Shown here in pieces: positions 177-19,577 of a stretch of 64,000 nt of DNA. This stretch comes from a virus. Its lineage: Duplodnaviria; Caudoviricetes. Location of the stretch: positions 2,072 to 66,071 of IMG/VR virus record IMGVR_UViG_3300028557_000038; one strand, written 5' to 3'. Below the pieces are notes generated by a model, which saw nothing but the letters and a program-made list of their open reading frames with translations, did no database searches and was not told where the DNA came from. How positions within the stretch are numbered: position 1 is the first letter of the stretch; each line of letters starts with the position of its first letter. Both the position numbers and the translations under genes were made by a program.

Positions 177-190
177 ATGCTCTTGGGCGC

Positions 191-1954: not shown

Positions 1955-2035
1955 GTGGCTATTTTTGCACCTTTTGGCTACTGTGTCAGAACATAGAGGT
2001 GAAATCTTGTGATTTAGGGGAGGTACACTTCTTCT

Positions 2036-2695
2036 GTGGAAAAACAGACTCAAGACCTCACTAAGTTTATCAATGCTGGAATAAAGAATTTTCAAGAGGC
2101 TAATGAGAAGAAGAGGGCAGCGGCTGCTCAACGCAAGGAACTAGAGCAAAAACAACGAGAAGAACGTCAACGGGCTGCTTTAATTCGTAAATTAACAAAA
2201 TTAATCAAAAAATACATACGAGAACAAGAAAAGATACGTTTAAGTGCTCAACACGGAACAGTAATTGGCGATTACGATCGCTGTCGTAGAAACAATCGAG
2301 TGGCTTGTGCGCCTTGCAAGGCTGTGGCTGCTGAGTACGTCCGTGTCAAATGGGCTAGTGACCCCACGTACAAGGCTAAAGAGAAAGAGTACTACAAGAA
2401 GAATCCTCATAAAAGAGGGATAAGCAGCAACAAGAACCGTGTAAAGGGCGGAAAACACCGATCATATACACGAAGTCAAGTTATTGAGCGTGATGGTCTT
2501 AATTGCTACCTCTGCAATATCCCAGTTGACTTCACCGCCCCTCACAGTCAAGGGCAACCTGGCTGGGAAACATACCCACATCTTGACCATGTGGTGCCCT
2601 TAGCCCTTGGTGGGGACGATACCCTCGAAAATGTCAAGTTAGCCCACGCAAAATGCAACATTGACAAGGGCGTTCGGCTACTGCCTTCATCCTGA
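2036..2695 (+). CDS. HNH endonuclease
   Basis: RDGLNCYLC...HLDHVVPLALGGDDTLENVKLAHAKCN HNH signature; GGAGG RBS upstream. Confidence 0.85.
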   Translation: MEKQTQDLTKFINAGIKNFQEANEKKRAAAAQRKELEQKQREERQRAALIRKLTKLIKKYIREQEKIRLSAQHGTVIGDYDRCRRNNRVACAPCKAVAAEYVRVKWASDPTYKAKEKEYYKKNPHKRGISSNKNRVKGGKHRSYTRSQVIERDGLNCYLCNIPVDFTAPHSQGQPGWETYPHLDHVVPLALGGDDTLENVKLAHAKCNIDKGVRLLPSS

Positions 2696-2827
2696 CCTCT
2701 CAACCGTGGCTGACACTTGGCCGAGCCATGCGGGTGAGCGCGTTAATGATGGGGGGGTCAACTTATTTTCATCATGTTTACATCATCACCTGACTACTAA
2801 TCAGGTGTGAATGTGTAAACACATGCG

Positions 2828-3125
2828 TTGTTATCAGGTTGTACCAATGATCTGATGACAATCTTGGTGACGATGCAACGATGCAACTTCGGCTACTGCA
2901 TTCTGAATCAGATTGCCTGTGTGCATACCACCAGCCTGTCAGCAACTCCAGCCACTTGTTATCAGGTAGCAACTAACTATTGATCTGTTGTCATCTCATC
3001 TACATACTTACTACCTGTTGCTATGTGTATCAGTTAGTTATCTCTATTAACAGGTTGTACCAACAATCAGTACTAGTAACCAATCTAGTAACCGATTGAT
3101 CTATCTATCTCTCTATCTCTATCTA
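2828..3125. repeat. Non-coding region with short direct repeats
   Basis: TTGTTATCAGGT at 2828 and 2956; CAGGTTGTACCAA at 2835 and 3051 (variant at 3852); CTAT/CT low-complexity run ~3101-3125. Confidence 0.6.
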
Positions 3126-3132
3126 GTCATCA

Positions 3133-3552
3133 CTATCGTTGTTCTGTATCAGGGGTGCTATCGCCCCCCTGTGACCCCCCATACTGAAAATGAGTGCGCT
3201 CTAAATAATCAATCGCTCTCTTCATCACTTCAACATCATCTTTCAATAAACCAATTCCACGATTACAGTTATTGCACAGATACCCACGAACTCGATTCGT
3301 TTTGTGATCGTGATCTACCGCTAATTTTTTTGTGGTGTTCTCTTCATGTATTCCACAGATCGCACACTTGTAATCTTGATCTTCTTTTATCACTAATAAT
3401 TCTTGGTAACTAATTCCAAACACTCTCGGCAATCTCTTCATTCGCTTTCGTGACGATCTACAACTCATGCAAATCTTTCGGTGATAGCCATGACCTGTTT
3501 TCTCATAACGATCGAGTGGCTTTTCTACTTGGCACTCTCGGCATTCACGCAT
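3133..3552 (-). CDS. Endonuclease VII-family protein
   Basis: CAIC...LAVDHDHKTNRVRGYLCNNCNRGIGLLKDD signature. Confidence 0.85.
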   Translation of the reverse strand: MRECRECQVEKPLDRYEKTGHGYHRKICMSCRSSRKRMKRLPRVFGISYQELLVIKEDQDYKCAICGIHEENTTKKLAVDHDHKTNRVRGYLCNNCNRGIGLLKDDVEVMKRAIDYLERTHFQYGGSQGGDSTPDTEQR

Positions 3553-3879
3553 CGAACTAATGTAATTGAACTTTCAACTATTCGCTCGGACTTACTTTCA
3601 GCACTAGCGATCTTGGCAGTTACTTCGGGCTATGTGACCCCGATCACATCTCACGCTCAAACTGCCCCGATCAGCCTCACGCTCAATCCCTCTCACAAGC
3701 CTTCTATGGGCTCTCTAACGGCTTTACCCCCAATACTGGAATAAGAACCCTATTCAGGGGGCGTTCGTGTCTCTGTGGCTGATCTGAAAGGGGCGATTTA
3801 TCTCGATCAGGATTAACAGGATTCTCGCCACGCCTGAGTAACCCCTATGAACAGGGTGTACCAACTTGTCGTACAGGTA

Positions 3880-3888
3880 TGCCATACT
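3880..3888 (+). promoter_or_regulatory. Putative extended -10 promoter for the plus-strand early transcript
   Basis: TG-C-CATACT just upstream of the structured leader. Confidence 0.4.
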
Positions 3889-3899
3889 TCTCTCAGTAG

Positions 3900-4555
3900 C
3901 GCACTCGATGTGTGACTTCCGATTTCAGAATCCTCTAGGGGCAAATCGGAAAATCATTCAAAGTGAAAAAAGCGAATCGTTAAAACTGGCAACAGGCTTT
4001 AACAATAATTTAATAATAAATAAACATCGGTGTAGCAACCTGCGAAAGATTTCCCTTAGTGGAAAGTACTTGTGTGACGATCACTTTATTTATTTATTAT
4101 TCATAGTGACTAAGAAACTGCGATTTATTTATTCGGTATTGATTACTACTAGTGATCAGTTACTAAGGCAGAAGGTGTGCGGTCGGACTATACGATGCAA
4201 TAACACCGAATTAAATAATCGATTCGATCATGCTTGCTACGGCGATGCGAATGTAACTAGTAATTACATTCAAGCGGTATTTCAAGGGCGCGGATTAACG
4301 ATTACGAAAGTGATTGTGAATAGCAGTAGGGCTTAGGGAACGAAGTGTGGAGATCGTCATGTAATTAGTGACGGAATGTTTCTACTAGTGAATGCAGGTG
4401 GTAACCAATCCAACCGATTGCACATTGAAACTAATTACAACAACAACGATCAGCACTTCTGCTTATGTGTTAATAGTGATCGATCATCGTAAACAATCAG
4501 CGAATTGTCTCGGTGATCGATCGCTATGGATACATAATCGAATGTATTCAATCCA
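3900..4555 (+). ncRNA. Large structured non-coding RNA (leader of early operon), family unassigned
   Basis: Nested stems: 3917-3925/3943-3951; CTG-GCAA-CAG at 3986-3995; ACGATTAC-GAAA-GTGATTGT at 4298-4317; 4360-4368/4431-4439; 4474-4489/4511-4526; G-U pairs and GNRA loops favour plus-strand RNA. Confidence 0.75.
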
Positions 4556-4587
4556 CTAGTAACTACAAAAGGAAACGGAAAACAAAA

Positions 4588-4830
4588 ATGACAAACAAAA
4601 CAGTAATTGGAACAACAGGTGTGTGGGATTTCTACGACACCAACACACAGAAGTATCTTTATTCATTCAAAGGATTTCTAAGTAAGAAAACACGAATTAA
4701 GTTTCATAAAAACGGATTCGTTCATGTCAATCTTTCAACAAACTTCACTCCATGTGGAGTAGCACCCACAAAACGAGTATTCAACAGAGAATTGCAAAAG
4801 GCTCTAACTACAAAATTGGAAAACAACTAA
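4588..4830 (+). CDS. Hypothetical early protein
   Basis: ATG at 4588 after AAGGAAACGGA; first gene of a tightly packed operon. Confidence 0.6.
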   Translation: MTNKTVIGTTGVWDFYDTNTQKYLYSFKGFLSKKTRIKFHKNGFVHVNLSTNFTPCGVAPTKRVFNRELQKALTTKLENN

Positions 4831-4832
4831 AA

Positions 4833-5006
4833 ATGAGACAACAAACATTCATCGATGCAAAGGGCAACATCGTTGCTCGTGGTCGTATTACAGAGATCGC
4901 TATCGATCTATTACTAAATGACGGAACTCGCTTCTACTCAACAAAGTCAGACAACTACACACTCGACTTCATCAAGAAACTAGACATTGTAAAGGTTGCT
5001 AAATAA
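4833..5006 (+). CDS. Hypothetical protein
   Basis: ATG 2 nt after previous stop. Confidence 0.55.
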   Translation: MRQQTFIDAKGNIVARGRITEIAIDLLLNDGTRFYSTKSDNYTLDFIKKLDIVKVAK

Positions 5007-5123
5007 ATGACAATCATTCTTGATTGCGCGATCTGCGCTAAACCTTCAACCGATCTGTGGTTCGTAAAACTAAATGACAAACCTGCACTTATCTGCCGAC
5101 TATGTAATGGAGAAACTAAATGA
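5007..5123 (+). CDS. Small CxxC...CxxC zinc-ribbon protein
   Basis: MTIILDCAIC...LICRLCNGETK, abutting both neighbours. Confidence 0.5.
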   Translation: MTIILDCAICAKPSTDLWFVKLNDKPALICRLCNGETK

Positions 5124-5416
5124 CAACAACACGAACATCAAACACAAAGGCTGGCGATTACATCGCAAACCGAATTGCATTCACAGGTAACAACCTCTAC
5201 GGCGTTGTTCAATCTTTTGATTCTGTTGTTTATCAAACAGGCAGACTCCCACAAGATTTTGAAACTCAACTGCGACTTGATCGACCTTCCTACATCGTCT
5301 ATTCATACGGAACACCAATCGCTTGGCATTCTAATAGCGGTTGGTTTATGCCTAACTGCAAATACTCAGTTACAACATCAAAACATCAAAACTATGTACG
5401 AAGGGCGGTTGCATAA
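5120..5416 (+). CDS. Conserved phage hypothetical (YSYGTPIAW family)
   Basis: PSYIVYSYGTPIAWH...YSVTTSKHQ; paralogue at 22573..22890. Confidence 0.75.
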   Translation: MTTTRTSNTKAGDYIANRIAFTGNNLYGVVQSFDSVVYQTGRLPQDFETQLRLDRPSYIVYSYGTPIAWHSNSGWFMPNCKYSVTTSKHQNYVRRAVA

Positions 5417-5417
5417 C

Positions 5418-5699
5418 ATGGGTCGTTTACACGCAGAGGAATTAGCAAGCGGTGAGTTTGTTATTGATCTCGAACAACAATTAGCAATTCACTTTCAATC
5501 TAATTGCTATCCACCTGTACCTCACTTCATGATCGCCGTTGCTAAAGAAGCGATCGATGCGGTTAACAACGAACAATACGATCTCGAAATTGAATTACCT
5601 GCTGGTGTTCAATTTCGTAACTCAACAACTGTTACTGCTATCAACGCCGTTGACGGCTTGTTTCTTGGTGCTTGGATTAACAGAGATGAGGATTACTAA
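5418..5699 (+). CDS. Hypothetical protein
   Basis: ATG at 5418 (MGRLHAEE), operon packing. Confidence 0.65.
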   Translation: MGRLHAEELASGEFVIDLEQQLAIHFQSNCYPPVPHFMIAVAKEAIDAVNNEQYDLEIELPAGVQFRNSTTVTAINAVDGLFLGAWINRDEDY

Positions 5700-5794
5700 A
5701 TGACGATCTTTCTTATTGCGATCATCGCTGGCGTTGTCGGTGTACTGATTGAAAACCTGTTTCACGAACTCTCACAAAAGAATCGGGGTATCTA

Positions 5795-6061
5795 GTGAGT
5801 CACTTCAATCTCGATGAACTCGGATTACTTCACACTATGGTTGAGGTGTCCTTAGAAAACGGATTAGAAAACGATGCACCTGCAAAGATCATCGATGTAC
5901 TGCGATCTGTACTTTCAAAACTACAACCGCTTATTGAAGAAGAGTGCAACATCTTCAATGAGTTTCAAGAACTAACTACACAACTCGATGATCTGCACCT
6001 TGCATCAAAGATCATTGTGCAAAACCCTGATGCAGTTACAACCGACTACCAAAACAACTAA
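5795..6061 (+). CDS. Hypothetical protein
   Basis: ORF track, operon packing. Confidence 0.55.
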   Translation: MSHFNLDELGLLHTMVEVSLENGLENDAPAKIIDVLRSVLSKLQPLIEEECNIFNEFQELTTQLDDLHLASKIIVQNPDAVTTDYQNN

Positions 6062-6083
6062 TCACCTAGAGAAACGGAATACC

Positions 6084-6968
6084 ATGTCAACAATCGAAAC
6101 TAAGTCCTTGTTCATTCCTTCATTGGAAAAGACTTCACACTACATACCACGCACCTTTACTGGTGGCGTTACAGAAGATGCCATGTACGACTTCGCACTT
6201 GCTAACAACATGAACATCTTGATTGAAGGCGATGCTGGAACTGGTAAAACTACTTCGGCACTTGCTTACGCATCAAAACGCCACATGAACTTCTTCGCCG
6301 TTCCATGTAACTCAGCGATCGACTTCACACAGTTAATCGGTGGCTTGTTCCCTGATGCTGACGGCAAACTAAAGTGGATTGACGGCGCGATCACGAAGAT
6401 CGTTCGTGAGGGTGGCGTGTTGTTGATCAACGAACTCAACAACGCCCCTAAGAACCTCTCTCAGTACCTCATGTCACTACTCGATGATCGCCGTTCAATT
6501 ACATTGATGTCACATGACAACGAAGTAATCAACGCACACCCTGATCTTCTAGTCGTTGCAGATCAGAATCCAAACTATCGTGGAACTCAATTACTTAATG
6601 AGGCGTGGAAAGATCGCTTCGAGATTAAATTGCGATTCGATTACGACACCACGATTGAAAAGAAGATCATCACATCTTCATCACTCTTGGAACTTGCTAA
6701 CGGAATGCGTTCAACATCTCGTAGAGATGAACACGCATCAGATCGTGGCACTATCTTCGAGACACCTGTATCACCACGAATCCTAAAAACATTCGAGAAG
6801 TTAGCAAAGGGCTTGTCATTCGATTTCGCTTGCGATGTGTTCGTAAACAATTTCACCGATGAAGAGCGACCTGCGGTCAAGATGCTTCTCGAAGGTACTT
6901 CATACAACATCAGAGAAGAACTCGGACTCGATGTCGATGCGATCACAACTGAATACGCACAGGCTTAA
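6084..6968 (+). CDS. MoxR/CbbQ/CobS-like AAA+ ATPase
   Basis: Walker A GDAGTGKT, Walker B-like LLINE, NPNYRGTQLLNEAWKDRF; ATG at 6084. Confidence 0.9.
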   Translation: MSTIETKSLFIPSLEKTSHYIPRTFTGGVTEDAMYDFALANNMNILIEGDAGTGKTTSALAYASKRHMNFFAVPCNSAIDFTQLIGGLFPDADGKLKWIDGAITKIVREGGVLLINELNNAPKNLSQYLMSLLDDRRSITLMSHDNEVINAHPDLLVVADQNPNYRGTQLLNEAWKDRFEIKLRFDYDTTIEKKIITSSSLLELANGMRSTSRRDEHASDRGTIFETPVSPRILKTFEKLAKGLSFDFACDVFVNNFTDEERPAVKMLLEGTSYNIREELGLDVDAITTEYAQA

Positions 6969-6970
6969 CA

Positions 6971-8944
6971 ATGTGTGCTTGCGGTAAATGTCCGTCATGC
7001 AAACGACAGAATGGAGTAAGTGTGAGTTATCACGATGCCGTTAAACAATGGGAACTAGACATACTTGGTGAAACTCGTGAGTCACTTCGATCACAAGCGA
7101 TTAAGGCAGAAGAGAAGAAACAACGACTAGAGCGATTCACACAATTCTTCGGTCGTGTTAATTCTGCATTCACTTTCCGCAAGGTAACTGTCAATGTCGA
7201 GAACTCAACAATGGAAGCACCTGCTTGGTCAGGTTCATCAACTGTCACATTCAACTCTCGTGTCATTGGTGACCTTAACGATGCTAAATCAATCGCTGGT
7301 GTTAAGGGGCTTGATCTCCACGAGATCAGCCACATTCTCTATACATCTCGTGAAGGTTCTGAAATCTTCGACTTCGTTAGCGATAACAATTACTTCATGG
7401 CATACAACGCACTTGAAGATCAGAGAATCGAAACTCTCTTTACGGCAAAGTATCCTTCAACGATCGATTGGTTTACTGCCACGATCTTGATTCACTTCGT
7501 TGATAACAAAGAGTCATTCACTAACTCTTATCCGCTATTGCGTGGTCGTAGATACCTGCCTGTCGAGTTAAGAGCGCAATCTCGTAACGCTTACCCTGAA
7601 CAAGATCAGATCGATGAAATCTGTTCAATCGTTGATCAATACCGCACTCTTATCTTTCCTGCTGATACTGAAATAGGAAAAGATTTAATTGCGCGATTTA
7701 ACGATCTATTGCCAAAGGGTGACGGCTCAGGCAACGGCACAGGTAGTGGCAACACCGCCTCTCTGAGCCCTGCTGGTGCTGGTCAAGAGGGCGATGTAGT
7801 CCTTCGCATCAATGACCCATTCGGTCATGGCAAGCGACCACAAGAGGGCTTGGAATCCTCTGCCACTTCACGACCTGTTGCACCAAAGAAACAAGAGAAA
7901 GATCGTGATCGCTCACAACAACTCGACAAAGAAGATGATGCACAACTATCTGAACAACTGAAATCAAAACCTGTTATCGATGTTGACATCAACGACATTG
8001 ATTTCGATTTCGATGATCAAGATTCAGATCAGGATTCATCTTCTAGTGAGGCTGGCGATTCTGCTGGTGATCTTGTTTATACATTGATCGAAGATTTATT
8101 AGAAAACATTCTTGATTCTAATGAAACTGAAATCAATGACATCTTGCGACAGATTGGTGGCTTACCTTCTCTTGCTACTAACAACTCCAAAGAACCTGAA
8201 CTCGATCAGTTTCGTGTTCTGCAACCTGATGCAAATACTTTCCAAGCATCGCTTTCATTCGGTCGTGAACTCGAAAGATTGAAGGCATCGTTCGACCCTG
8301 CATGGGATAAGTACGAGTCACAAGGTCGCTTGTCTGCACATCGCTACTTGCGTGGTGATGAACTCGACACAGTATTCGATCAATGGAACGAAGGTCGTGA
8401 AGATGCGACCGAGATCGAATGCGTGATCATTCTCGACAACTCAGGTTCAATGAATGGACACAAAGCCTCTTCTGCTTACAAAGCCATGTACGCAATTAAG
8501 AAGGCACTCGATCGTGTTAATGCAAACACAACTGTTATCACTTTCAACGATCATGCTAATACTCTCTATCGTGCAACTGATCGTGCTAATAACACAATTC
8601 GTGATGCTGGTTGTGGTGGTGGAACTGATGCAACTGAGGCGATCACTTACGCAACAAAGTTACTTGCTGAAACTGAAAAGCCTGTACGAATCTTCTTCGC
8701 AATTACTGACGGAGAGTGGTCAGGCAATCAAGATGCTAATCACGACACGATCAAGCGCATGGCTCGTGCTGGTGTGCTAACTGCATTCGCTTACATTCCC
8801 GAAAGCGATCAGCAGGTTGAACTAACAACAGAGAAGGCTCACTATTGCGAGATCGCTTCTGTTGTTCGTAATCCATTCGATCTTGTTTACATGGCGAAAT
8901 CAATCGTGAAGTACGCGATCTCTCGCCGTCTCGTAAACAACTAA
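6971..8944 (+). CDS. VWA-domain protein with N-terminal HExxH (CobT-like partner of the AAA+ ATPase)
   Basis: LHEISH, acidic linker, MIDAS DNSGSM, GGGT and ITDG motifs. Confidence 0.85.
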   Translation: MCACGKCPSCKRQNGVSVSYHDAVKQWELDILGETRESLRSQAIKAEEKKQRLERFTQFFGRVNSAFTFRKVTVNVENSTMEAPAWSGSSTVTFNSRVIGDLNDAKSIAGVKGLDLHEISHILYTSREGSEIFDFVSDNNYFMAYNALEDQRIETLFTAKYPSTIDWFTATILIHFVDNKESFTNSYPLLRGRRYLPVELRAQSRNAYPEQDQIDEICSIVDQYRTLIFPADTEIGKDLIARFNDLLPKGDGSGNGTGSGNTASLSPAGAGQEGDVVLRINDPFGHGKRPQEGLESSATSRPVAPKKQEKDRDRSQQLDKEDDAQLSEQLKSKPVIDVDINDIDFDFDDQDSDQDSSSSEAGDSAGDLVYTLIEDLLENILDSNETEINDILRQIGGLPSLATNNSKEPELDQFRVLQPDANTFQASLSFGRELERLKASFDPAWDKYESQGRLSAHRYLRGDELDTVFDQWNEGREDATEIECVIILDNSGSMNGHKASSAYKAMYAIKKALDRVNANTTVITFNDHANTLYRATDRANNTIRDAGCGGGTDATEAITYATKLLAETEKPVRIFFAITDGEWSGNQDANHDTIKRMARAGVLTAFAYIPESDQQVELTTEKAHYCEIASVVRNPFDLVYMAKSIVKYAISRRLVNN

Positions 8945-8946
8945 CT

Positions 8947-9005
8947 GTCACTCTCTAGGTGACTCGGTGAAGTGCGTTACTCGTGGAAGGCTGGCGCACT
9001 TCACC
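8947..9005 (+). other. Intergenic hairpins (processing or attenuation site)
   Basis: GTCAC/GTGAC hairpin, then 11-bp stem GGTGAAGTGCG (8966)/CGCACTTCACC (8995); no clean U-tract. Confidence 0.55.
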
Positions 9006-9041
9006 ACTTAACTTTCAATTACAACTAAGGAGAATAAATAA

Positions 9042-9662
9042 ATGAAATCAGCAGAACTTCAAGTCGGTGTTAGGTACGGAGTTATTCCTTCATGGGATTA
9101 TTCATCAGCAGATAAGAAAGACCCGACAAAGGTGCAACGCCGTAATGTTGCTAACTCAGCGTTAGTGTCGTTAGAAAAGTACGAATACAAGGTGTATCGA
9201 TCAGACAATCCTGATGATGCACAATTCACTCCTGCACCAAAGGGAAGTCGATCTGTCGGTTACTTGGTTCGATCTTCTGATTGGGCTGGTAACGGCTCAA
9301 CTGGTGACATCTACTGGCTCGCAAGGGCTCAGGACATCGTTGCTGAGTACGCCACTCTCGAAACTCGTTGGGTTACCGAAGAGGCAGAAGAGAAGGCTCG
9401 TGAGGCTCAATGGAAGGCAGAGCGTGAAGCCAAAGAGCAACAAGAGCGACTCGAAAGAGAGAAGGCTCAGCGCACCATTGATGCGGTTAAAGAATCTCTT
9501 CGATCACTAATCGGCAATCGCGTTGACAAGATCGACTTCGACATTCGCAATCGCAGATTAGAAAACGGAAACTATGGACTTAGTGCATCGGCACAGATCG
9601 ATGTACGAGTACTGCAATCACTTATTGAAAAGGTACTAGAGGCACAGGACAGGGTGGCGTAA
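9042..9662 (+). CDS. Hypothetical protein with coiled-coil
   Basis: 206 aa, AAGGAG RBS. Confidence 0.75.
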   Translation: MKSAELQVGVRYGVIPSWDYSSADKKDPTKVQRRNVANSALVSLEKYEYKVYRSDNPDDAQFTPAPKGSRSVGYLVRSSDWAGNGSTGDIYWLARAQDIVAEYATLETRWVTEEAEEKAREAQWKAEREAKEQQERLEREKAQRTIDAVKESLRSLIGNRVDKIDFDIRNRRLENGNYGLSASAQIDVRVLQSLIEKVLEAQDRVA

Positions 9663-10366
9663 TGAGTTACTTCTTAGATCGATTCGTAGCAATTCAAGAT
9701 AAGTATTACAACAACTATCAAGGCGGTACTCACTACTCACTATGGTGGCGAACTAAACGATTCGATCGCATGGTCGAGTTAAAACAGATGCCTAACACTT
9801 ATCAAGAGATTGAATACAAAGGGCATTCAATCATTGTGCAAGGCATTCACTACGAGTGGTGTCACATCTTCGATGTAAATGGAAACTCATTCACCCACAC
9901 ACCAAAGCCAACAGAGATCGCAACTCGTGGTGAACTGCAATTCAACACGATCTTTCTTGCATGGGCTTGGCGCATTGACGGAGTAAATACAGATAAGCCG
10001 TTGAACTGGAATAGTGAGTATGCAGTTATTTGCGGTAGTCACACATCAGACAAGATCGAGAAAACAATTAAACTCGCAAAGAAGCGCATTGATCTTGAAG
10101 CAAAGATCGTTGCGGTTCAAGATCAACTGATTGCTATGTCTAATGATCGAATGACTTACGCATCAAACATGAGTGACTTCACTCCATACAATTCTGTAAT
10201 TGGTGATGAAGTGTTTATTCAGGCGTTCGGTCGATTGCGTAAAGGGTTAATCGTTGAGACAACTGGTTCACGATTCATCGTTGCCTATGTAACGCCGTCT
10301 AATCATGACGATCTGAAATACAAAACACTTCCACTTAGTCGCTTATACCAAAAGGAGATTGCGTGA
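9662..10366 (+). CDS. Hypothetical protein
   Basis: 234 aa, TAATG coupling. Confidence 0.75.
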   Translation: MSYFLDRFVAIQDKYYNNYQGGTHYSLWWRTKRFDRMVELKQMPNTYQEIEYKGHSIIVQGIHYEWCHIFDVNGNSFTHTPKPTEIATRGELQFNTIFLAWAWRIDGVNTDKPLNWNSEYAVICGSHTSDKIEKTIKLAKKRIDLEAKIVAVQDQLIAMSNDRMTYASNMSDFTPYNSVIGDEVFIQAFGRLRKGLIVETTGSRFIVAYVTPSNHDDLKYKTLPLSRLYQKEIA

Positions 10367-10839
10367 CAACTAAGAGCAGAAAGTCTGCTAAAACTTTACA
10401 AAGAGAAGCAGACTTAGCACTTGGCGTACAACAATGCGCTAAGTGTGATCATGTGTTTCCACTAAGTAACTTTCGATCTGCAAAAACTAAATCAGGAGTT
10501 ACTTCGTACTGCAAACCTTGCGAAGAGCAATACAAGTTTGAATGGCACTTGAAGCGCAGATTAGAGATCAAGAACTGGATTTATCACCACTTGAAAACTA
10601 ATCCTTGCGTTGATTGTGGCGAGAGCGATGTACTCGCACTCGACTTCGACCATGTAAAGAGCGCAAGAAAGCGTTACAACATCGCTCATGCTTTCATGAT
10701 AAGTGGCATGACGATCAAGCGATTACAAACTGAGATCGCAAAATGCGATGTCCGTTGCGGTAAGTGCCACAGAATCCGTACACACATGGCGAGTAAGTCA
10801 TGGAAATACCGAATGGCTATTGAGAAGGGAGATGCTTAA
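10363..10839 (+). CDS. HNH endonuclease
   Basis: CVDCGE...LDFDHV...EIAKCDVRCGKCHRIRT. Confidence 0.8.
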   Translation: MTTKSRKSAKTLQREADLALGVQQCAKCDHVFPLSNFRSAKTKSGVTSYCKPCEEQYKFEWHLKRRLEIKNWIYHHLKTNPCVDCGESDVLALDFDHVKSARKRYNIAHAFMISGMTIKRLQTEIAKCDVRCGKCHRIRTHMASKSWKYRMAIEKGDA

Positions 10840-11010
10840 TTGTTAACTCGTAGAGGTTGGATAGTGCTGGTAATTGTTCCTGCATTGATCTTGGTATCGC
10901 TATTTACTTATGCAACTCGTGATGTCTGCTATGTGGGCAAGGGTGGCAACTGGTTGGGCTATGGCTCATGTACAAAGATGATCGATGAAGTGATTGGAGA
11001 AAATAAATGA
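10840..11010 (+). CDS. Small membrane protein
   Basis: TTG start, MLTRRGWIVLVIVPALILVSLF; same LTRRG+TM start as the transglycosylase. Confidence 0.55.
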   Translation: MLTRRGWIVLVIVPALILVSLFTYATRDVCYVGKGGNWLGYGSCTKMIDEVIGENK

Positions 11011-11225
11011 TCGCAACAGTTAAAGAGACGATCGAGATTCTGCAAAGAAACTACGGCAACGCACTTGATGAAACGCTGGTAGTTACTTGGTGGGATTCGA
11101 AAGATTTCGAAGAAATGACAGATGATGCAATTAACATCTGTGATGATGCACTTGATGTCTGTGTTGGTCATGTCAACGACACAGTATGGCAAAACGCAAA
11201 GATGTTAAATGAAGGAGAAGAATAA
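11007..11225 (+). CDS. Acidic hypothetical protein
   Basis: ORF track, ATGA overlap. Confidence 0.6.
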   Translation: MIATVKETIEILQRNYGNALDETLVVTWWDSKDFEEMTDDAINICDDALDVCVGHVNDTVWQNAKMLNEGEE

Positions 11226-11390
11226 ATGGGATACGCACAGATCATTCGTAGGGTAGAAGCCCACGAACTAACTAATTGCGATGATTGCGGAAATGACGAA
11301 CTTACTTCATCAGGTAAGTACATAACTGATTCAAGCGGTGAACCTGCTTTGTGGTTCTGCTTTAACTGCATTCATAAAACAACAAGATAG
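11226..11390 (+). CDS. Small zinc-ribbon protein
   Basis: CDDC...WFCFNC. Confidence 0.55.
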   Translation: MGYAQIIRRVEAHELTNCDDCGNDELTSSGKYITDSSGEPALWFCFNCIHKTTR

Positions 11391-11394
11391 ATTT

Positions 11395-11515
11395 ATCGAG
11401 CAGGGGTCAACATAGGGTTCAATCGGGTTAATTCATTTCCCGACTCCTTACCTGTGAAGGGCGATCATGATCGCATTCGATAGTTACGGCGTAGTCGTAC
11501 CTGCCCCTGCTTGAT
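11395..11515 (+). ncRNA. Multibranch structured RNA element A
   Basis: Closing stem ATCGAGCAGGGG/CCCCTGCTTGAT encloses TCGGG/CCCGA, CCTT/AAGG, GCGATC/GATCGC and TACGGC/GTCGTA hairpins. Confidence 0.6.
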
Positions 11516-11522
11516 TCCACTA

Positions 11523-11649
11523 TTGATAGAGATCATCGACACCTAGCAGATCGGCGATCTGTAAAGATGTTATGAAAATCTTGCAAGATCGCTGGTGCAA
11601 CGAAAGATCAGCGCACGACATCGTCCTACTTCTCGATGATCTCTATCAA
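11523..11649 (+). ncRNA. Multibranch structured RNA element B
   Basis: Perfect 17-bp inverted repeat TTGATAGAGATCATCGA/TCGATGATCTCTATCAA enclosing several small hairpins. Confidence 0.6.
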
Positions 11650-11677
11650 CTATTTAATTACCTAGAGAGGATTACAC

Positions 11678-11851
11678 ATGGAAACTGCACGACTATTTAC
11701 AGTAGAAGAAAAGAATCTGATACTTCTTGCACGATTTGCACATGGTGAATCGTTGCAGAGCGTTGCTGATCGATTCGGTACAACTCGTAAACTAATTCGT
11801 CAATTAGAAAGCAATTACATGAAAATAATGAAAGGGGAAGTAAATGAGTGA
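11678..11851 (+). CDS. Stand-alone sigma-70 region 4-like HTH protein
   Basis: Not in ORF track; LILLARFAHGESLQSVADRFGTTRKLIRQLE parallels sigma r4.2 (LRF..TLEEVG..FGVTRERIRQIE); GAGG RBS. Confidence 0.65.
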   Translation: METARLFTVEEKNLILLARFAHGESLQSVADRFGTTRKLIRQLESNYMKIMKGEVNE

Positions 11852-12185
11852 ACTATCATCACACCAAACTGATCTGATTAAATCGATCACGATCGCTAAT
11901 GAGTTTCTAAAGATTGTTCGTGGATTTAAGGTTGATTCAGATCGCAAAGATTCTCTTCCGCAAGAGATAAAGGAGTATCTAGCCAACGAATACTTGAACT
12001 CTGTTATGGAAGATCAGGAGATTGAACCCGAAATGCTTATTTGGGGATTCCTGCACATGATCGAGATTCTCTTGAAGTATGCAGACCTAGACCCCGAAGA
12101 TTTAACGAATGTCATGGATTCATTTGTTAAGTATGTGATTGAAAATCCTGATCAGTATTCAGATCGGAGTACAGATGAAAACTGA
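11844..12185 (+). CDS. Hypothetical protein
   Basis: ORF track, operon packing. Confidence 0.65.
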   Translation: MSELSSHQTDLIKSITIANEFLKIVRGFKVDSDRKDSLPQEIKEYLANEYLNSVMEDQEIEPEMLIWGFLHMIEILLKYADLDPEDLTNVMDSFVKYVIENPDQYSDRSTDEN

Positions 12186-12450
12186 GATCAAGAATGCACC
12201 ATGTCAATCAGCAGGTGTTGACCCTGAATTATTCTTTCCTGACCCAACAGAGTACGAAAAGATTCAACAAGCAAAGTCAATCTGTGGTCAATGTCCTGAG
12301 ATCACAAAGAATAAGTGTCTGACATTCGCACTTGAAAACGGAGTGCAGTACGGAATCTTCGGTGGATTAACAGATCACGATAGAGCCCTGCTACGCCGTA
12401 GAGAGAACCGAAAGTATCGTCAGTATGTATCGGTAGTAGGTGAGTACTAA
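12175..12450 (+). CDS. whiB: WhiB-family transcription factor
   Basis: C...DPELFFP...AKSICGQCP...CL..AL...GIFGGLT. Confidence 0.9.
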   Translation: MKTEIKNAPCQSAGVDPELFFPDPTEYEKIQQAKSICGQCPEITKNKCLTFALENGVQYGIFGGLTDHDRALLRRRENRKYRQYVSVVGEY

Positions 12451-12572
12451 TGGAGTACGCAAAAAATCAAGTAGTGATAGAAGTCAATGGTGGCGTTGCA
12501 GAAGTTACTTGTTGCCCTAGTGACATTGAAGTAGTAATTATTGATTACGACAACGACATGAATGGAGATTAA
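12450..12572 (+). CDS. Small hypothetical protein
   Basis: MEYAKNQVVIEVNGGVAEV...VIIDYD, TAATG coupling. Confidence 0.5.
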   Translation: MEYAKNQVVIEVNGGVAEVTCCPSDIEVVIIDYDNDMNGD

Positions 12573-12574
12573 GA

Positions 12575-12784
12575 ATGATGAATCCAAATGACATAGTGCT
12601 ATTCACTCGTGAAGAAGCAGATCAATTAGTTAGGAGAGTTCTTACTGATGATGAGTGGTTAAAGATCAGAGAGTGGATTACTTCTGACGATAATCTGTGG
12701 GAAGTGATCGATGAATGTATTCAGAACACAATTAGTGAGGTGATTACCGATGAAGATCAACAAGAAACTGGTGAATCGAATTGA
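12575..12784 (+). CDS. Acidic hypothetical protein
   Basis: ORF track. Confidence 0.55.
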   Translation: MMNPNDIVLFTREEADQLVRRVLTDDEWLKIREWITSDDNLWEVIDECIQNTISEVITDEDQQETGESN

Positions 12785-12972
12785 AGGACTGGCTCACTAC
12801 TACCGACATCGCACAACAAACAGGGCTAAAGATCAACACGATCTACACCTATCGAAAGCGCAACACCCTTCCCGAACCCGATCACATGATCGGCAATCGA
12901 CCACTATGGAAGCAAGAAACAATCGATGAGTGGAACACTTATCGAACAACTCAAATCGAAATGGAGAAATAA
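12781..12972 (+). CDS. AlpA/excisionase-like HTH protein
   Basis: WLTTTDIAQQTGLKINTIYTYRKRNTLPEPD..IGNRPLW. Confidence 0.8.
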   Translation: MKDWLTTTDIAQQTGLKINTIYTYRKRNTLPEPDHMIGNRPLWKQETIDEWNTYRTTQIEMEK

Positions 12973-12975
12973 TCT

Positions 12976-13203
12976 ATGGTTGCAAATGTAATCAGTAGCG
13001 AAACATCATCAACAACTCATGTGATCGAGTTTCCAATGAATGGAAACACTTTCACCGCCAAAGTATTTATTGGTGAGTGGGGCGTTGATGTCGATTGGTT
13101 TATTGGTGAGGACTTTATTGCGATCGATGATCGCTGGAAGGTTCTGCCAACTGAACTCTATGATCTCGATGATTCAGATTGGGAAGAGATTCTCTATCCA
13201 TAA
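12976..13203 (+). CDS. Acidic hypothetical protein
   Basis: ORF track; last gene before trailer and terminator. Confidence 0.6.
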   Translation: MVANVISSETSSTTHVIEFPMNGNTFTAKVFIGEWGVDVDWFIGEDFIAIDDRWKVLPTELYDLDDSDWEEILYP

Positions 13204-13249
13204 CTAACTCTTAGCCCTGATCTGGGGCGATTAGGAGTTACTTCAAGCG

Positions 13250-13284
13250 CACATAAGCAGATTCCCTAAGCCCATAGTCACTAT
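13250..13284 (+). ncRNA. Trailer complementary to the leader RNA
   Basis: 13250-13261 = revcomp 4458-4469; 13262-13273 = revcomp 4329-4340; 13275-13284 = revcomp 4103-4112. Confidence 0.7.
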
Positions 13285-13286
13285 TC

Positions 13287-13321
13287 GCCCCTAGCCCCCG
13301 ATCGGGCTAGGGGCTTTTTTT
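13287..13321 (+). terminator. Intrinsic terminator of early operon
   Basis: GCCCCTAGCCC-ccgatc-GGGCTAGGGGC followed by T7. Confidence 0.9.
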
Positions 13322-13330
13322 GCATTCGAA

Positions 13331-13362
13331 GTTACTGGCGAGTAACATTACTCATCAGTAAC
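13331..13362. promoter_or_regulatory. Tandem inverted-repeat sites upstream of recombinase
   Basis: GTTACTggcgAGTAAC followed directly by ATTACTcatcAGTAAC (TTACT-N4-AGTAA twice). Confidence 0.55.
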
Positions 13363-13377
13363 ATGAAAGGGGGAATC

Positions 13378-14640
13378 ATGGCTTATGTCGTAAAGCGTGG
13401 AGATAGGTTTACAGGCTATTACAGAAAGGGCGGAAAACGCCTCTCAGCAGGTACATGGGGCTCGGAGATCGATGCCATGTATCACGCCTCAAAAGCAGAG
13501 GTATCGGGTGTCAGCGAGCCTTCTAGGGCTGTATTTACCCTATCGACCTACATCGATTCATGGTTACCGACCGCCGATCTCATGCCGATCACTCGCAAGG
13601 GCTATCGGTCAGTACTCGATCGCTATGTGATTCCGACTCTTGGAACTCGCAAAGTAACTTCGATCGATAGACGGGCGATTCAAGAGTTACTTCAAGCCCT
13701 CAGGGGTCAGGGGGTGGGGTCTGCCACCCTCAATCAGATCAAGGCATCGCTAGGGTCTGCCCTGTCTCAGTTAGTCGATACAGGAGAATTGACCGAGAAC
13801 CCCACTCATGGAATTAAGATCAAGGCGAAACATTCTGACATCTCGAATGTCGTAGAGCCCGAAGAGTTTAAGGCGATTATTCAGCACCTACCGACCGAAG
13901 GGGCTCAGTTATTCGCCCGATTCTTAGTCGCATCAGGTTGCCGATTCGGGGAAGCCACCGAGATCAGGGTCAAGGACATCAACCTAAAGACAGGGGAAGT
14001 CTATGTCCAAAGGCGAGTCAGCGATCTAGGTACAAGCCATACCAGCAGGTTTCTAGTCGTAGAAGCCACAAAGTCAGGGCAAAAGCGAAGCCTTATGTTA
14101 AGCAAAGCCCTACTACAAGAGATTCAGGGCTATGTCATAGCAAAAGCCCTATCAAAAGATGACCTGTTGTTCCCAAGAACGATCATCTTAACAACAGGTA
14201 AACTAAAGACTTCTCGTGGAGAAATGTCTAAGCGACCATTCGCCCAAGACGGAAAACTGTTCCAGCATGGAACTCTGTACGCCTATACACATGGGCGTTG
14301 CCGATGTGAGGCTTGTCGAGAGTCGGTGCGAAAGCACAGGCAAAAGACAAAGCCATACCAAAAGCAACAGAGATTCATCGACCATACGAGTCACCTACCA
14401 CGAGATGTATGGAGAACTACATGGAACAAGGCAATAGCCAAGTCAGGCATCGGTTGGAGTCCTAGAACCCATGATCTCAGACACGCTAACGCTACCCAAC
14501 TTCTAAAAAGTGGGGTAGATGTGCATGAGGTCAAGGAACGCTTAGGGCATCAGTCGATAAAGACGACAGAGCGATACCTACATCGCCTTCGTCACAACCA
14601 GTCAAAGGCATCAGAAAGTGTCAATGACTTTTTGGAGTGA
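13378..14640 (+). CDS. int: Tyrosine recombinase/integrase with Cys-rich insertion
   Basis: GCRFGE (R), TKSG (K), HDLRH, LGH, TTERY; insertion HGTLYAYTHGRCRCEACR. Confidence 0.9.
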   Translation: MAYVVKRGDRFTGYYRKGGKRLSAGTWGSEIDAMYHASKAEVSGVSEPSRAVFTLSTYIDSWLPTADLMPITRKGYRSVLDRYVIPTLGTRKVTSIDRRAIQELLQALRGQGVGSATLNQIKASLGSALSQLVDTGELTENPTHGIKIKAKHSDISNVVEPEEFKAIIQHLPTEGAQLFARFLVASGCRFGEATEIRVKDINLKTGEVYVQRRVSDLGTSHTSRFLVVEATKSGQKRSLMLSKALLQEIQGYVIAKALSKDDLLFPRTIILTTGKLKTSRGEMSKRPFAQDGKLFQHGTLYAYTHGRCRCEACRESVRKHRQKTKPYQKQQRFIDHTSHLPRDVWRTTWNKAIAKSGIGWSPRTHDLRHANATQLLKSGVDVHEVKERLGHQSIKTTERYLHRLRHNQSKASESVNDFLE

Positions 14641-15236
14641 TGATGAAACTAACAAGAAGAGGCAAGATCGTATTCGGATCGCTATTTACGGCGATCTTCG
14701 TAGCAAGTGGGATAGTGGTACTGCCACCAGCCTTCAGCCCTACGCAAGCCGAAGCACAGATCAAGCAGAAGCAATACCAAAAGCAATACCAAGAGAGAGC
14801 CCTAGCCAAGTACGAGAACGCAGATAGTCTGACCAAGACAGAGTTAGTCGATCTGCTTCACGCAGTTGGATTCAAGGGAGAAGCCTTACGCCATGCGTGG
14901 GCAATCGTCATGAAAGAATCTCGTGGCAACCCTCTCTCCCATAATGGCAACCGAGATACAGGAGACAACTCATTCGGGTTGTTCCAGATCAACATGGTTG
15001 ACTCATTAGGGCAAGATCGTAGGGAAAAGTTCAGTTTGGAGTACAACGCCCAACTGTTGAACCCTGTGGTTAATGCCAAGATTGCTTATCACATGAGCAA
15101 GCAAGGCGATAACTGGGTAGCGTGGAAAGGTGTTAACAATCCTGTAGTCAGGAAGTGGTTAGCACAGTTTCCCGAAGCCCAAGCAAAAGCAATAGCAAAA
15201 GCGAAAGCCAAAGCAATAGGACAAGCAACAGAGTAA
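14637..15236 (+). CDS. Membrane-anchored lytic transglycosylase (lysozyme-like)
   Basis: N-terminal TM; AIVMKESRGNP...DNSFGLFQIN...NAKIAYHM...W.AW. Confidence 0.8.
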   Translation: MMMKLTRRGKIVFGSLFTAIFVASGIVVLPPAFSPTQAEAQIKQKQYQKQYQERALAKYENADSLTKTELVDLLHAVGFKGEALRHAWAIVMKESRGNPLSHNGNRDTGDNSFGLFQINMVDSLGQDRREKFSLEYNAQLLNPVVNAKIAYHMSKQGDNWVAWKGVNNPVVRKWLAQFPEAQAKAIAKAKAKAIGQATE

Positions 15237-15247
15237 GCAATAGGAGA

Positions 15248-15271
15248 AGCCCCGTCAGAAATGGCGGGGCT
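15248..15271. terminator. Hairpin / probable terminator
   Basis: AGCCCCGTCA-GAAA-TGGCGGGGCT after the transglycosylase; weak U-tract. Confidence 0.55.
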
Positions 15272-15333
15272 ATCTTCGAAGTAACTCTACCTGGCGGCCA
15301 GGTTAGTTAGTTAGTTACTCAAAGGGGAGCAAG

Positions 15334-15822: not shown

Positions 15823-15875
15823 AGCAATAGCAAAAGCCCTACCAAAAGGCAGGGCTTCCGCTTTGTATTGCTAGA

Positions 15876-18071: not shown

Positions 18072-19577
18072 TTAGTCTTCTATTGATTCAGAGATAATTT
18101 TAGTAATGGTCTCTTCACGAATTGGATTAGGGAACTCTTTGAGAGCCTGAGCACGATCTCCAAAGATTGCAGAGAGCACTCCACCAGAAGATTGTCGGCT
18201 GGCTGTGATCTGAATGAACTCTTTATTCTGATCCATCTCGTTGACATTACCCACTAACTTGAGTAGGCGATCGATCTCTTGAGAAAGATTTGGATCTGCG
18301 TATCCGCCATTCATTTCCTCTGCAAAACGCATAAAAGCAACTCTCTGCCCCTGCATTTCGATAATTGCAGTAAGTAATGCCTTTAGTTGCTCCTTAGTTT
18401 TTACCTCTACTGGAAGATTAAATGCACAAGTATTTTGCGGCTTGAACGCTGGACAGTTAGAGGCAACGAAGCAGGTATCGCATTGGCGAAGAGAATTCTG
18501 TTGTGTTTTAATGACGGGTACATCTATCAAAACATCGTTGCCATCATCATCTGTCTCAACTATCGTCTTCATTTTGAAACCAAAAACAGGCAAGTTTGTC
18601 ATCTCTTCAGGGGCTCTTTCTACTGCTCCACTGCGCTCCACTTTCCCCCCATCTGCTCCACTGTTATCAGAAGTGGACAGTTCTAATCCCATCAACCCCG
18701 TCATAAACTCATCGCTATTATCAGATAAGTTCTTGTCTTTACCACCATCAATGATGTGGAAGTTGGGGGTCTTCTTGTCCATGGATTCCTCTAGTTTCTT
18801 GTATGACCAGACAGCAACTCTAGTTGCTTCAAGGGTACTATCTTTGACAAACTCTAAATAGTCTAGTCCAGCCTTCTCTACAATGTTCTTGTAGCGAGGT
18901 CGTGCCTGATCCTTCATCTTTTTGGGATAACGTACTAGACGTGCTCCATCCCAGATGATCGTCTCACCTCTACGCATAGGCGATAGCCATGACAATGTGC
19001 TGGCAGTGACAAATGGTATAGATCTTAGGTTGTCTGGCTTGGCACATCCGAGGGCGTGGTAGTTGACTTTGAACTGGTTGGAGTAAGTCCTTGTTACGGC
19101 GGCCAAGTTAGTTACTGACTCGATCTCGTCATGGGGAATAGCCACATTGTGAAAGTTGCGTGACATCTCTGCCAACTTACTCTGGCCATACTCTTCATGC
19201 CATATGACCCATAGTTTAGGGTCGTTACTGAAGAAGGGACGCTGCGCTTCTATCCATTCAAGGCCGAGTATTTGTGAGTCGAACTCTAAGAACCCTTCAG
19301 CACGATCTGCATTGTTGACAAGGAACTCTTGATAGTCAGCGGCCAAGTCAATGAGTTCCTCACGAGATAGCCCAGCCTTGTCAGCCTGTGATGCCCCTGA
19401 TTCAATGTAGACCTTGGTCTCTGGGTCAAAGTGCTCGCTTATAAGCCAGATTTTAGTCTTAGGTAGACCACGCTTACGAAGACCCCAAAAGTTGAGTCCC
19501 ATCGACTCAACTTTCATGCCTTCTAGCAGGGTGCGATTGGAACCAACCTCTACACCTGAAAAGATAAGTTTAGTCAT
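18072..19577 (-). CDS. Hypothetical protein; weak TGT-like N-domain and Cys-rich C-domain
   Basis: YHALGC...LRSIPFVTASTLSW resembles the HxLG...PFxSxDSxSW motif but lacks the Asp; CDTC...NC...C. Confidence 0.4.
   Translation of the reverse strand: MTKLIFSGVEVGSNRTLLEGMKVESMGLNFWGLRKRGLPKTKIWLISEHFDPETKVYIESGASQADKAGLSREELIDLAADYQEFLVNNADRAEGFLEFDSQILGLEWIEAQRPFFSNDPKLWVIWHEEYGQSKLAEMSRNFHNVAIPHDEIESVTNLAAVTRTYSNQFKVNYHALGCAKPDNLRSIPFVTASTLSWLSPMRRGETIIWDGARLVRYPKKMKDQARPRYKNIVEKAGLDYLEFVKDSTLEATRVAVWSYKKLEESMDKKTPNFHIIDGGKDKNLSDNSDEFMTGLMGLELSTSDNSGADGGKVERSGAVERAPEEMTNLPVFGFKMKTIVETDDDGNDVLIDVPVIKTQQNSLRQCDTCFVASNCPAFKPQNTCAFNLPVEVKTKEQLKALLTAIIEMQGQRVAFMRFAEEMNGGYADPNLSQEIDRLLKLVGNVNEMDQNKEFIQITASRQSSGGVLSAIFGDRAQALKEFPNPIREETITKIISESIED

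Follow-up and report, generated by a model that had tools for sequence, protein, structure and literature searches.

A 12.6-kb gene block lacking some two dozen short restriction-type words is conserved in a family of uncultured lake phages

Results

Genes and features of the locus

We analysed a 64,000-nucleotide stretch of DNA (the window; bases 2072-66071 of the 66,071-bp IMG/VR contig IMGVR_UViG_3300028557_000038, estimated completeness 66%) from a virus of the Caudoviricetes. The sequence occurs in 24 sequencing runs, all of lake or freshwater origin and available as assembled contigs. Between window positions 2724 and 15289 lies a block of genes in which about two dozen short words of the restriction-site type are missing, although these words occur at normal density outside it. 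Of the block open reading frames (ORFs), 10 were scanned for known families with Pfam and PHROGs and 11 more with Pfam only. The features of the block and its borders are as follows.

2036..2695, plus strand: HNH endonuclease gene outside the block, inserted at the border, at the putative genome-end junction; carries purged words
2673..2810, plus strand: conserved non-coding border element, from an alignment of 12 relatives
2724..15289, large genes all on the plus strand: purged stretch in which restriction-type words are missing
2810..3900, plus strand: mostly non-coding leader with a second TTCGGCTACTGC at 2888 and TTATCAGGTTGTACCAA-like words at 2831, 3047 and 3848
3133..3552, minus strand: endonuclease VII family gene within the leader, site-free (PF02945, E 3.4e-24)
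5988..6968, plus strand: MoxR/CobS-like AAA+ ATPase (PF07728, E 1.7e-19; phrog_249)
6971..8944, plus strand: 657-aa VWA-domain (CobT-like) protein (PF13519, E 2.2e-10)
10363..10839, plus strand: HNH endonuclease (phrog_2255, E 1.5e-28)
12139..12450, plus strand: WhiB-family transcription factor (PF02467, E 9.5e-17; 61.8 bits against a cut-off of 23.6)
12781..12972, plus strand: HTH_17/excisionase-like small protein (PF12728, E 7.4e-6; 26.6 bits, just below the cut-off of 27)
13287..13314, plus strand: strong terminator-like hairpin that closes the first transcription unit (11-pair stem with 9 G-C pairs, then a T run)
13363..14640, plus strand: tyrosine recombinase of the phage integrase family (PF00589, E 7.7e-25)
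14637..15236, plus strand: lysozyme-like (SLT_3) protein, the final gene of the block (PF18896, E 1.6e-16)
15250..15303, plus strand: right border, with a hairpin at 15250-15272 and then the palindrome ACCTGGCGGCCAGGT at 15289-15303

The block also carries many small ORFs. Its larger genes are all on the plus strand, and the large genes to the right of position 15876 are all on the minus strand. With a WhiB regulator, nucleases, many small ORFs, a single coding strand and terminators at its end, the predicted content of the block is of an early type. A megablast search of the block, and of 20 kb of the remaining sequence, against 50,697 phage records gave no match; at gathering thresholds Rfam yielded no family in the window, and ARAGORN found no tRNA there.

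Words missing from the block

Computed counts bore out the central claim of a preliminary description of this DNA, in which GCNGC, CCNGG, GGNCC, GGCC and ACGT were reported by eye to be missing between a GGCC at 2719 and a palindrome at 15289 but common elsewhere. The five words have 191, 93, 53, 52 and 143 sites, respectively, in the window and none inside 2723-15288; both landmarks stand where they had been placed, the palindrome being ACCTGGCGGCCAGGT. For each of the five, the longest site-free gap in the window is the block, with lengths of 12,577-16,380 nt compared with 1,430-6,136 nt for the next-longest gap. The list of missing words proved longer than had been noted. ATAT, CASTG, ACSGT and CGWCG have no site in the block and 83, 100, 62 and 50 sites, respectively, in the remaining contig. 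Seven non-palindromic five-letter words (GGATG, GGAGC, CGAGG, CCGTG, GGAGG, GGGAC and GACGC) are likewise at zero, where 8-22.5 sites of each would be expected from their density in the rest. Among palindromic hexamers, 53 of the 64 types are missing in the block, compared with 18 of 64 in the rest, and the total of 73 such sites amounts to 41% of the 177 expected under a Markov model.

The borders of the purge are sharp. The stretch was delimited as 2724-15289 with 26 five-letter classes found in the contig outside the block but not within it; the nearest occurrences of block-absent five-letter words are at 2719 on the left and at 15290 on the right. AGCT and CCGG behave differently, as neither occurs anywhere in the entire 66,071-bp contig, in which CGCG is also rare.

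The block retains, or is enriched in, GATC, TCGA, CATG, TGCA, GTAC, TTAA, AATT, CTAG and GCGC. This rules out that palindromes or hairpins are avoided in general, and the purge is therefore word-specific. We also rejected the idea that the purged words are one-letter neighbours of AGCT: AGCC and AGCG occur in the block at the density of the rest, and AGCA is mildly low (104 versus 174 expected). As a separate observation, GATC (156 in the block versus 64 expected from the rest) and TCGA (107 versus 35) are strongly enriched, as are ATCG and GAWTC. This enrichment may follow from the reduced set of permitted words or may be a separate signal.

We take many of the purged words to be targets of Fnu4HI/TseI, EcoRII/BstNI, Sau96I/AvaII, HaeIII, MaeII, TspRI, Hpy99I, FokI, BsmFI, HgaI, AluI or HpaII; these names were not used as evidence. 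We know of no enzyme for ATAT, ACSGT, CCGTG, GGAGC or CGAGG.

Chance, codon usage and protein sequence

In a scan with sliding 12.5-kb windows the block lacked 20 five-letter classes, compared with at most 5 for non-overlapping windows. Twelve block ORFs were then resampled synonymously in 200 runs, using the codon usage either of the block itself or of the rest. Mean counts per word were 7-36 sites, and every word stayed above zero in all 200 runs, which rules out a difference in codon usage as the sole cause. The purge also covers the ~1.1-kb non-coding leader and the endonuclease VII gene on the minus strand, and hence acts on DNA rather than on codons. Collectively, these data exclude a purge by chance.

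The purge extends into the protein sequences. Across 17 ORFs of the block that were called mechanically (3,322 aa), Ala-Ala occurs 0 times versus 16.5 expected, and Pro-Gly and Gly-Pro 0 times each versus 5.6 expected, as the preliminary description had seen in a handful of the proteins. In the rest of the genome Ala-Ala is found 151 times versus 125 expected. The alanine runs that had been read in the flanking proteins are also present, with GCNGC at 2117, 2120 and 2123 within the gene at 2036-2695 and MAAG read at 15334.

Conservation and two tiers of avoidance in relatives

A search with the 657-aa VWA protein identified 18 IMG/VR loci with identities of 52-87%. Related genomes had been named as a check in the preliminary description, and all 18 relatives contain such a purged block: each has one stretch of 10.1-14.1 kb without GCNGC, CCWGG, GGNCC and CASTG (ending at the contig end in 7 of the 18), and a next-longest gap of at most 1.8 kb. 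Three complete relatives of 94.7-97.4 kb carry exactly one such block each. The position of the block is identical in all relatives, and its flanks are syntenic. Identities of the AAA+ protein fall into tiers of 93-95, 74-80 and 60-64%, and those of the flanking ribonucleotide reductase into tiers of 95-97, 88-91 and 85%. Block and flank proteins thus share the same three tiers of divergence; the block is therefore old and vertically inherited, not foreign.

Close relatives differ by ~15% of nucleotides across the block, and the counts are still zero. Random substitution of 15% of the block, in contrast, produced on average 216 sites of 15 words, and never fewer than 184 in 200 runs. Selection is accordingly ongoing, since zero counts have been kept despite a divergence at which random change gives ~216 sites.

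We tabulated the missing words in 19 sequences, comprising 4 whole contigs and 15 loci; for short loci the rest is just a 2-11 kb flank, so that absence everywhere is a weaker statement for them. Two tiers emerged. Missing genome-wide are AGCT in 19, CCGG in 17, GATC in 7 and CGCG in 4 of the 19 sequences, and AGCT is missing also in the three complete ~95-kb genomes. Missing from the block only, in all or nearly all of the 19, are GCWGC, GCSGC, CCWGG, GGWCC, GGSCC, CASTG and GGATG. Other words turn over between lineages: ACGT is purged from the block only in 13, ATAT in 10, GGCC in 17 and CGWCG in 13 of the 19 sequences, and one clade has lost GTAC and TGCA from the block. Whatever a lineage avoids genome-wide is avoided in its block too, where many further words are missing. 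Where GATC is allowed, it is two- to three-fold enriched in the block.

Borders of the block

At the left border, the conserved element at 2673-2810 comprises TTCGGCTACTGCC, CTCAACCGTGG, an (A)CCTGGCYG position (here CTTGGCCG), TTAATG(A/G)TGGGGGG and the inverted repeat CACCTGA-N7-TCAGGTG at 2787-2807. All four of the four genomes compared have a single copy of this inverted repeat (G001 28389, G002 50730 and G003 24263 in the complete relatives); its arms, ~45 nt inside the left border of the block, are invariant across relatives down to 52% protein identity. We take its 7-7-7 layout to be that of a tyrosine-recombinase core site, and the block encodes such a recombinase, which was found in five of the five whole relative records searched (61-96% identity in G001-G005). 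From the alignment and from synteny with the ends of Alone3 and BRock, the 2673-2810 element is a candidate for both the site of the physical genome end and the recombinase core site. The conserved CCTGG within ACCTGGCYG is, in most relatives, the final site ahead of the block, and the purge starts ~20-45 nt before the conserved TTAATGGTGGGGGG word. The HNH gene at 2036-2695 was found by nucleotide match only in this contig and in one relative locus, L009.

Inside the left border, the TTATCAGGTTGTACCAA-like words of the leader are more frequent than expected (3 matches versus 0.23), and these words and the TTCGGCTACTGC repeats may be candidate early promoters or operators. A sigma-70 promoter scan gave 14 sites, compared with 30.5 in shuffled sequences, a scan that is uninformative for an actinobacterial host.

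At the right border, the palindrome ACCTGGCGGCCAGGT contains the first sites after the block and is assembled from four of the purged words (CCTGG, GCGGC, GGCC and CCAGG). Hairpin and palindrome are both present in the relative loci L004 and L010, the hairpin alone in L015; the palindrome is kept with a one-base central change in a relative at 65% VWA identity. Candidate features for an injection pause are this hairpin and palindrome (15250-15303) and a field of 12-bp repeats at 14034-15455. The latter consists of 12-bp-periodic AAGCAATAGCAA-like repeats that run through the recombinase and lysozyme-like genes and the ORF that follows, in differing frames. No convincing att-like repeats were found flanking the block.

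The contigs of 5 of the 18 relatives start inside the block and that of one more 59 nt before the border element, in a set of loci chosen near the block. Three of these five starts fall in the leader, 0.2-1.7 kb from the border, one corresponds to window position ~3950 and one is unplaced.

Genome position and sequencing depth

For the terminase of the complete relative G001, identity to the terminases of the cultured Streptomyces myoviruses BRock, Alone3, LuckySocke and GiJojo is 53%. G001 is colinear with Alone3 through the terminase, head, tail and replication genes up to a gene for a protein with a tRNA-guanine-transglycosylase (TGT)-like fold, with 39 ORFs matched. The records of Alone3 and BRock begin and end with the same 197 bp and 221 bp, respectively, so that fixed ends with a short terminal repeat are deduced for both. 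In each of them an opposite-strand block of ~10-12 kb lies at one physical end and is read inward (Alone3 genes 204-221, 105.7-115.2 of 115.9 kb; BRock gp1-gp27, 0.9-12.1 kb), the other genes being on one strand. Because these ends map by synteny onto the left border, the lake-phage block is inferred to lie at a genome end and to be read inward. The "direct terminal repeats" of 123-127 bp with which G001-G003 close as circles were rejected as physical ends, since their length is that of the assembler word overlap. Two further features of the cultured phages were noted. Their terminal blocks (BRock 1-12.1 kb, Alone3 105.4-115.9 kb) are GC-richer than the rest (56.5-57% versus 51.5-53%), and that of Alone3 shows a roughly tenfold depletion of AGAAG, AGCAG, CCTTC and CTTCA.

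The preliminary description had considered that the block could be a long terminal repeat. Depth, given as one mean per contig (mean word depth), was taken from the contigs of 4 of the 24 runs. In run X1, possibly the source sample, a single 15,482-nt contig covering window positions 641-16122 has a depth of 12.3, and its neighbours have depths of 12.6, 11.6, 11.8 and 12.4; a collapsed two-copy repeat would place this contig at ~1.8 times that of its neighbours. In run X7 the block contigs are at 7.16, 7.15, 6.7, 9.3 and 6.62 and the flank contigs at 7.04, 7.3 and 7.9. Depth is doubled in neither run; the block is single-copy and therefore not a long terminal repeat of the T5 type. Among the contigs of the four runs, which can miss rare forms, we found neither joints that skip the block nor places with many molecule ends.

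Two side observations concern the neighbourhood. Contigs of X1 and X7 skip 117 bases (16059-16177) within the ribonucleotide reductase gene, an in-frame 39-codon length variant in part of the population. Beyond the putative end, window positions 1-2131 and positions 20-28 kb of G001 (minus strand) hold a run of small ORFs that is not purged and contains several paralogue families; one protein of ~140 aa, for example, is present three times in G001.

Discussion

Early-exposed DNA as the probable basis of the purge

We propose that the block is early-exposed, probably first-entering DNA, an early module at a genome end that is read inward, and assign this reading a probability of roughly 0.6. 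On this reading the phage would be a myovirus of ~95 kb that infects freshwater Actinobacteria; the WhiB gene and the lake or freshwater origin of all 24 runs point to these hosts. According to this proposal, the genome would be linear, with fixed ends and a short terminal repeat, and one end would lie in the element at ~2724-2810. Everything between that end and the hairpin at 15250-15272 would be exposed to host restriction enzymes, and the block would be expressed before a general protection of the remaining ~85% of the genome. In the simplest form the block would enter first and the rest later, as in the two-step transfer of T5 or the transcription-coupled entry of T7. Each site in the block would then be lethal and sites elsewhere would be tolerated. 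Selection would strip the block of some two dozen words, even where this forbids Ala-Ala, Pro-Gly and Gly-Pro in frame, and words that the phage cannot neutralise (AGCT and CCGG; GATC or CGCG in some lineages) would be stripped genome-wide.

What the sequence records is a footprint of tolerance outside but not inside, with about two dozen words at zero in the block and at normal density around it. The two tiers are the pattern that would be expected from changing host restriction repertoires, and they would likewise be expected if one protection covered the rest, but not the block, against most enzymes. The terminal position is inferred by synteny. Of the preliminary description, the idea of DNA exposed before the rest is protected, in the manner of T5, fits the purge in 18 of 18 relatives, the synteny-based end and published precedent; its long-terminal-repeat variant found no support.

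Several observations weigh against this proposal. The core word list is constant across deeply diverged relatives; were host restriction systems to turn over fast, this would be surprising. Since the rest of the genome is transcribed towards the block, transcription alone cannot pull it in. No known anti-restriction gene was recognised among the block ORFs scanned. All 24 runs are available as contigs only. Contigs bridge both borders, as expected for a short repeat or for concatemers, and lend the proposal no support. A circularly permuted genome would undo the model, and only the comparison with BRock and Alone3 argues against it. These two cultured relatives are themselves unpurged: BRock has 190 palindromic hexamers versus 141 expected, and Alone3 lacks only 2 five-letter classes and shows no palindrome purge. 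The link between terminal block and purge therefore rests on the uncultured lake-phage family. T5 itself, of which the first 50 kb were compared, shows at most a mild signal. Its first 9.6 kb contain 136 hexamer palindromes versus 136.8 expected; the first-step region lacks 37 of the 64 types, compared with 18-29 in control windows, and 2 five-letter classes, compared with 0-5 elsewhere.

Alternative explanations

Among the other explanations, a first one invokes DNA modification: a TGT/DpdA-like enzyme would replace guanines in the phage DNA and thereby block most restriction enzymes, and the block, left unmodified or only sparsely modified for a functional reason, would need to be free of sites. 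A candidate for such an enzyme is encoded nearby.

18072..19577, minus strand: 501-aa protein outside the block with a TGT (DpdA-like) fold (phrog_887; AF2 model, pLDDT 83.9)

The best Foldseek match of this protein is 7a4k (E 2.4e-6), and TGT structures match with TM scores of 0.46-0.51 on the target at 12-14% identity. The family comprises 783 homologues with four invariant cysteines, is mostly viral and falls in the Atlas only into unnamed viral clusters; gene 192 of Alone3, annotated as "hypothetical protein", is a homologue with 33% identity. On the basis of the modelled fold, the protein may be a DNA guanine-exchange (DpdA-type) enzyme of a family without a model. In favour of the explanation, its gene is only 2.8 kb from the right border of the block, every purged word except ATAT contains G, and the block has a distinct word composition in which GATC, TCGA and GAWTC are enriched. 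ATAT, however, has neither G nor C and is nevertheless purged from the block only in 10 of the 19 sequences, and AGCT and CCGG contain G and yet are avoided genome-wide. The assignment of the protein is also weakened by the lack of a Pfam match in any of 90 family members and of a sequence match in the Protein Data Bank, where searches with this and with a 206-aa and a 234-aa protein returned no hit with E below 0.3. Genes for preQ0 synthesis (FolE, QueD, QueE, QueC) were looked for among 9 neighbouring ORFs and not recognised, none of these ORFs having a Pfam match. Finally, we know of no mechanism that would spare 12 kb from a post-replicative base exchange. Taken together, we regard an unmodified island as unlikely.

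A second explanation is self-avoidance, in which the purged words would be cut by early nucleases of the phage itself that degrade host DNA at a stage when only the block is inside the cell. HNH and endonuclease VII homing-type enzymes usually do not cut words of 4-5 bp, and some two dozen words, some of them lineage-specific, would need many specificities. A phage-borne cause would fit the constancy of the core word list across relatives down to 52% protein identity, and HNH and endonuclease VII genes are numerous in the genome, with two lying within the block. Self-avoidance would still need delayed entry or protection of the rest, and is thus a variant of early exposure rather than a different geometry. 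Davison's preprint (bioRxiv 10.1101/866236) puts the idea forward for T5 gene A1 and also discusses the stop signal of T5. We consider it improbable as the cause of the purge.

A long terminal repeat of the T5 and BF23 kind, with one copy per end merged by the assembly, would agree with the block's size (12.6 kb of ~95 kb) and content, which resemble those of the T5 repeat, and circular assemblies would hide it; given the undoubled depth in X1 (12.3 versus 11.6-12.6 in the flanks) and X7 (6.6-9.3 versus 7.0-7.9), and repeats of just 221 bp in BRock and 197 bp in Alone3, it is very improbable.

Just as improbable is the acquired element that the preliminary description had offered as an alternative, here taken as an integrative element, mobile or gained horizontally, that brings its own recombinase and owes its composition to another host or to independent transfer: the tyrosine recombinase, the excisionase-like gene, the sharp borders and the distinct word usage would suit it, but the block occupies the same locus in 18 of 18 relatives, falls into the same divergence tiers as the reductase, carries the genome-wide avoidances of each lineage (AGCT, CCGG, and GATC or CGCG where applicable), has no flanking direct repeats and no contig joint across it in four runs, and has no confirmed copy among 185,579 species genomes (235 pattern matches with two VWA peptide patterns only, which does not show absence).

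Implications of the proposed early exposure

Returning to the block as early-exposed DNA, a more specific model can be formulated, which we put forward tentatively and hold to be rather doubtful. In this model BRock-like phages of Actinobacteria would deliver their genome in two stages with no duplication of the end; the single-copy terminal block would enter, be read inward as far as a hairpin and make a general protector of the later 85% against at least 20 specificities, and the recombinase would circularise the genome at the invariant CACCTGA-N7-TCAGGTG site near the end in the manner of Cre/lox. The purged words, those for which we know no enzyme included, would then directly reveal which restriction specificities an uncultured lake actinobacterium possesses.

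If early exposure is the correct explanation, the two tiers would separate the enzymes that the phage can neutralise from those beyond it. The exposed segment of uncultured phages could then be found from sequence alone, and the search for the protecting function would narrow to ~20 conserved genes. BRock and Alone3, which have the same architecture, provide a possible laboratory system in Streptomyces.

Comparison with known systems

Experimental precedent exists for a restriction-sensitive leading segment. PMC10644984 reports that Tequintavirus phages, T5 and BF23 among them, withstand type I, II and III systems as long as no site lies in the first-step-transfer region. How later-entering T5-like DNA is protected has been an open question since 1979, and according to PMC10644984 it "remains to be determined". 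For the T7-like Murciavirus, PMC12455610 (2025) describes a type I motif that restricts only within the early-injected region; it speaks of selection "on a sub-genomic scale", strongest on the first-injected segment, and points out that surveys of avoidance ignored the position of sites. Our literature search found this principle and these experiments, but no regional purge of many words as strong as the present one, no dipeptide effect and no report on this phage family. The lake-phage family shows the footprint predicted in this way at full strength, maintained in relatives down to ~52% protein identity.

The first-step-transfer DNA of T5 and BF23 resembles the lake-phage block in several respects. 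It comprises about a tenth of the genome at one end (here placed by synteny) and contains early genes with an HNH gene among them, and a long, repeat-rich non-coding region is found at a border. Restriction acts through sites in that stretch only and sites elsewhere are tolerated, in T5 through an early function (PMC10644984); this is known for T5 from experiments and suggested here by a sequence footprint. However, the T5 segment is duplicated, whereas the lake-phage block is single-copy without a long terminal repeat, and no homologue of A1, A2 or dmp was recognised among the block ORFs scanned. The lake phage is probably a myovirus of Actinobacteria, and its block is read inward from the end throughout. 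The footprint also differs in strength, with 26 five-letter classes absent from the lake-phage block versus 2 from the T5 segment, and hexamer palindromes at 41% versus 100% of expectation.

T7-like phages have fixed ends with a short repeat, as the lake phage would have by synteny, and an early operon that is read inward from the entering end and closed by a terminator, a layout that the orientation and terminators of the lake-phage block would fit. As PMC12455610 indicates for Murciavirus, motifs in the leading region alone decide restriction sensitivity. In T7 every gene is oriented along the direction of entry, whereas the remaining 85% of the lake-phage genome is oriented the opposite way, and no Ocr-like gene was recognised among the block ORFs scanned. 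Murciavirus further differs in that one type I motif is concerned there, compared with about two dozen type II- or IIS-like words here.

BRock (Borockvirus) and Alone3 are the closest in architecture. Their backbone is colinear with that of the lake phages, with identities of 53% for the terminase, 62% for the capsid and 58% for the portal protein, and each has an other-strand block of ~10-12 kb at a physical end beside a terminal repeat of ~200 bp. In contrast, their blocks are not purged of palindromes and are GC-richer, and that of Alone3 shares with the lake-phage block one HNH-family match only, detected by tblastn (G001 35094-35504 and Alone3 257-655).

The absence of AGCT and CCGG throughout (and of GATC or CGCG in some lineages) is in line with the genome-wide site avoidance of phages, but most of the avoidance in the lake phage is regional. 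The leading region found in conjugative plasmids is similar as the first DNA to enter a cell and as a target of defence-driven selection, and in plasmids it carries anti-defence genes. It differs in that PMC13478746 reports no consistent depletion of short palindromes in the leading region of 1,751 plasmids, whereas depletion is near-total in the lake-phage block.

Taken together, the proposed logic of the lake-phage block is that of the leading DNA of T5 and T7; what is new is its appearance in a single-copy, putatively terminal block of a BRock-type phage, with a footprint that is stronger and has two tiers.

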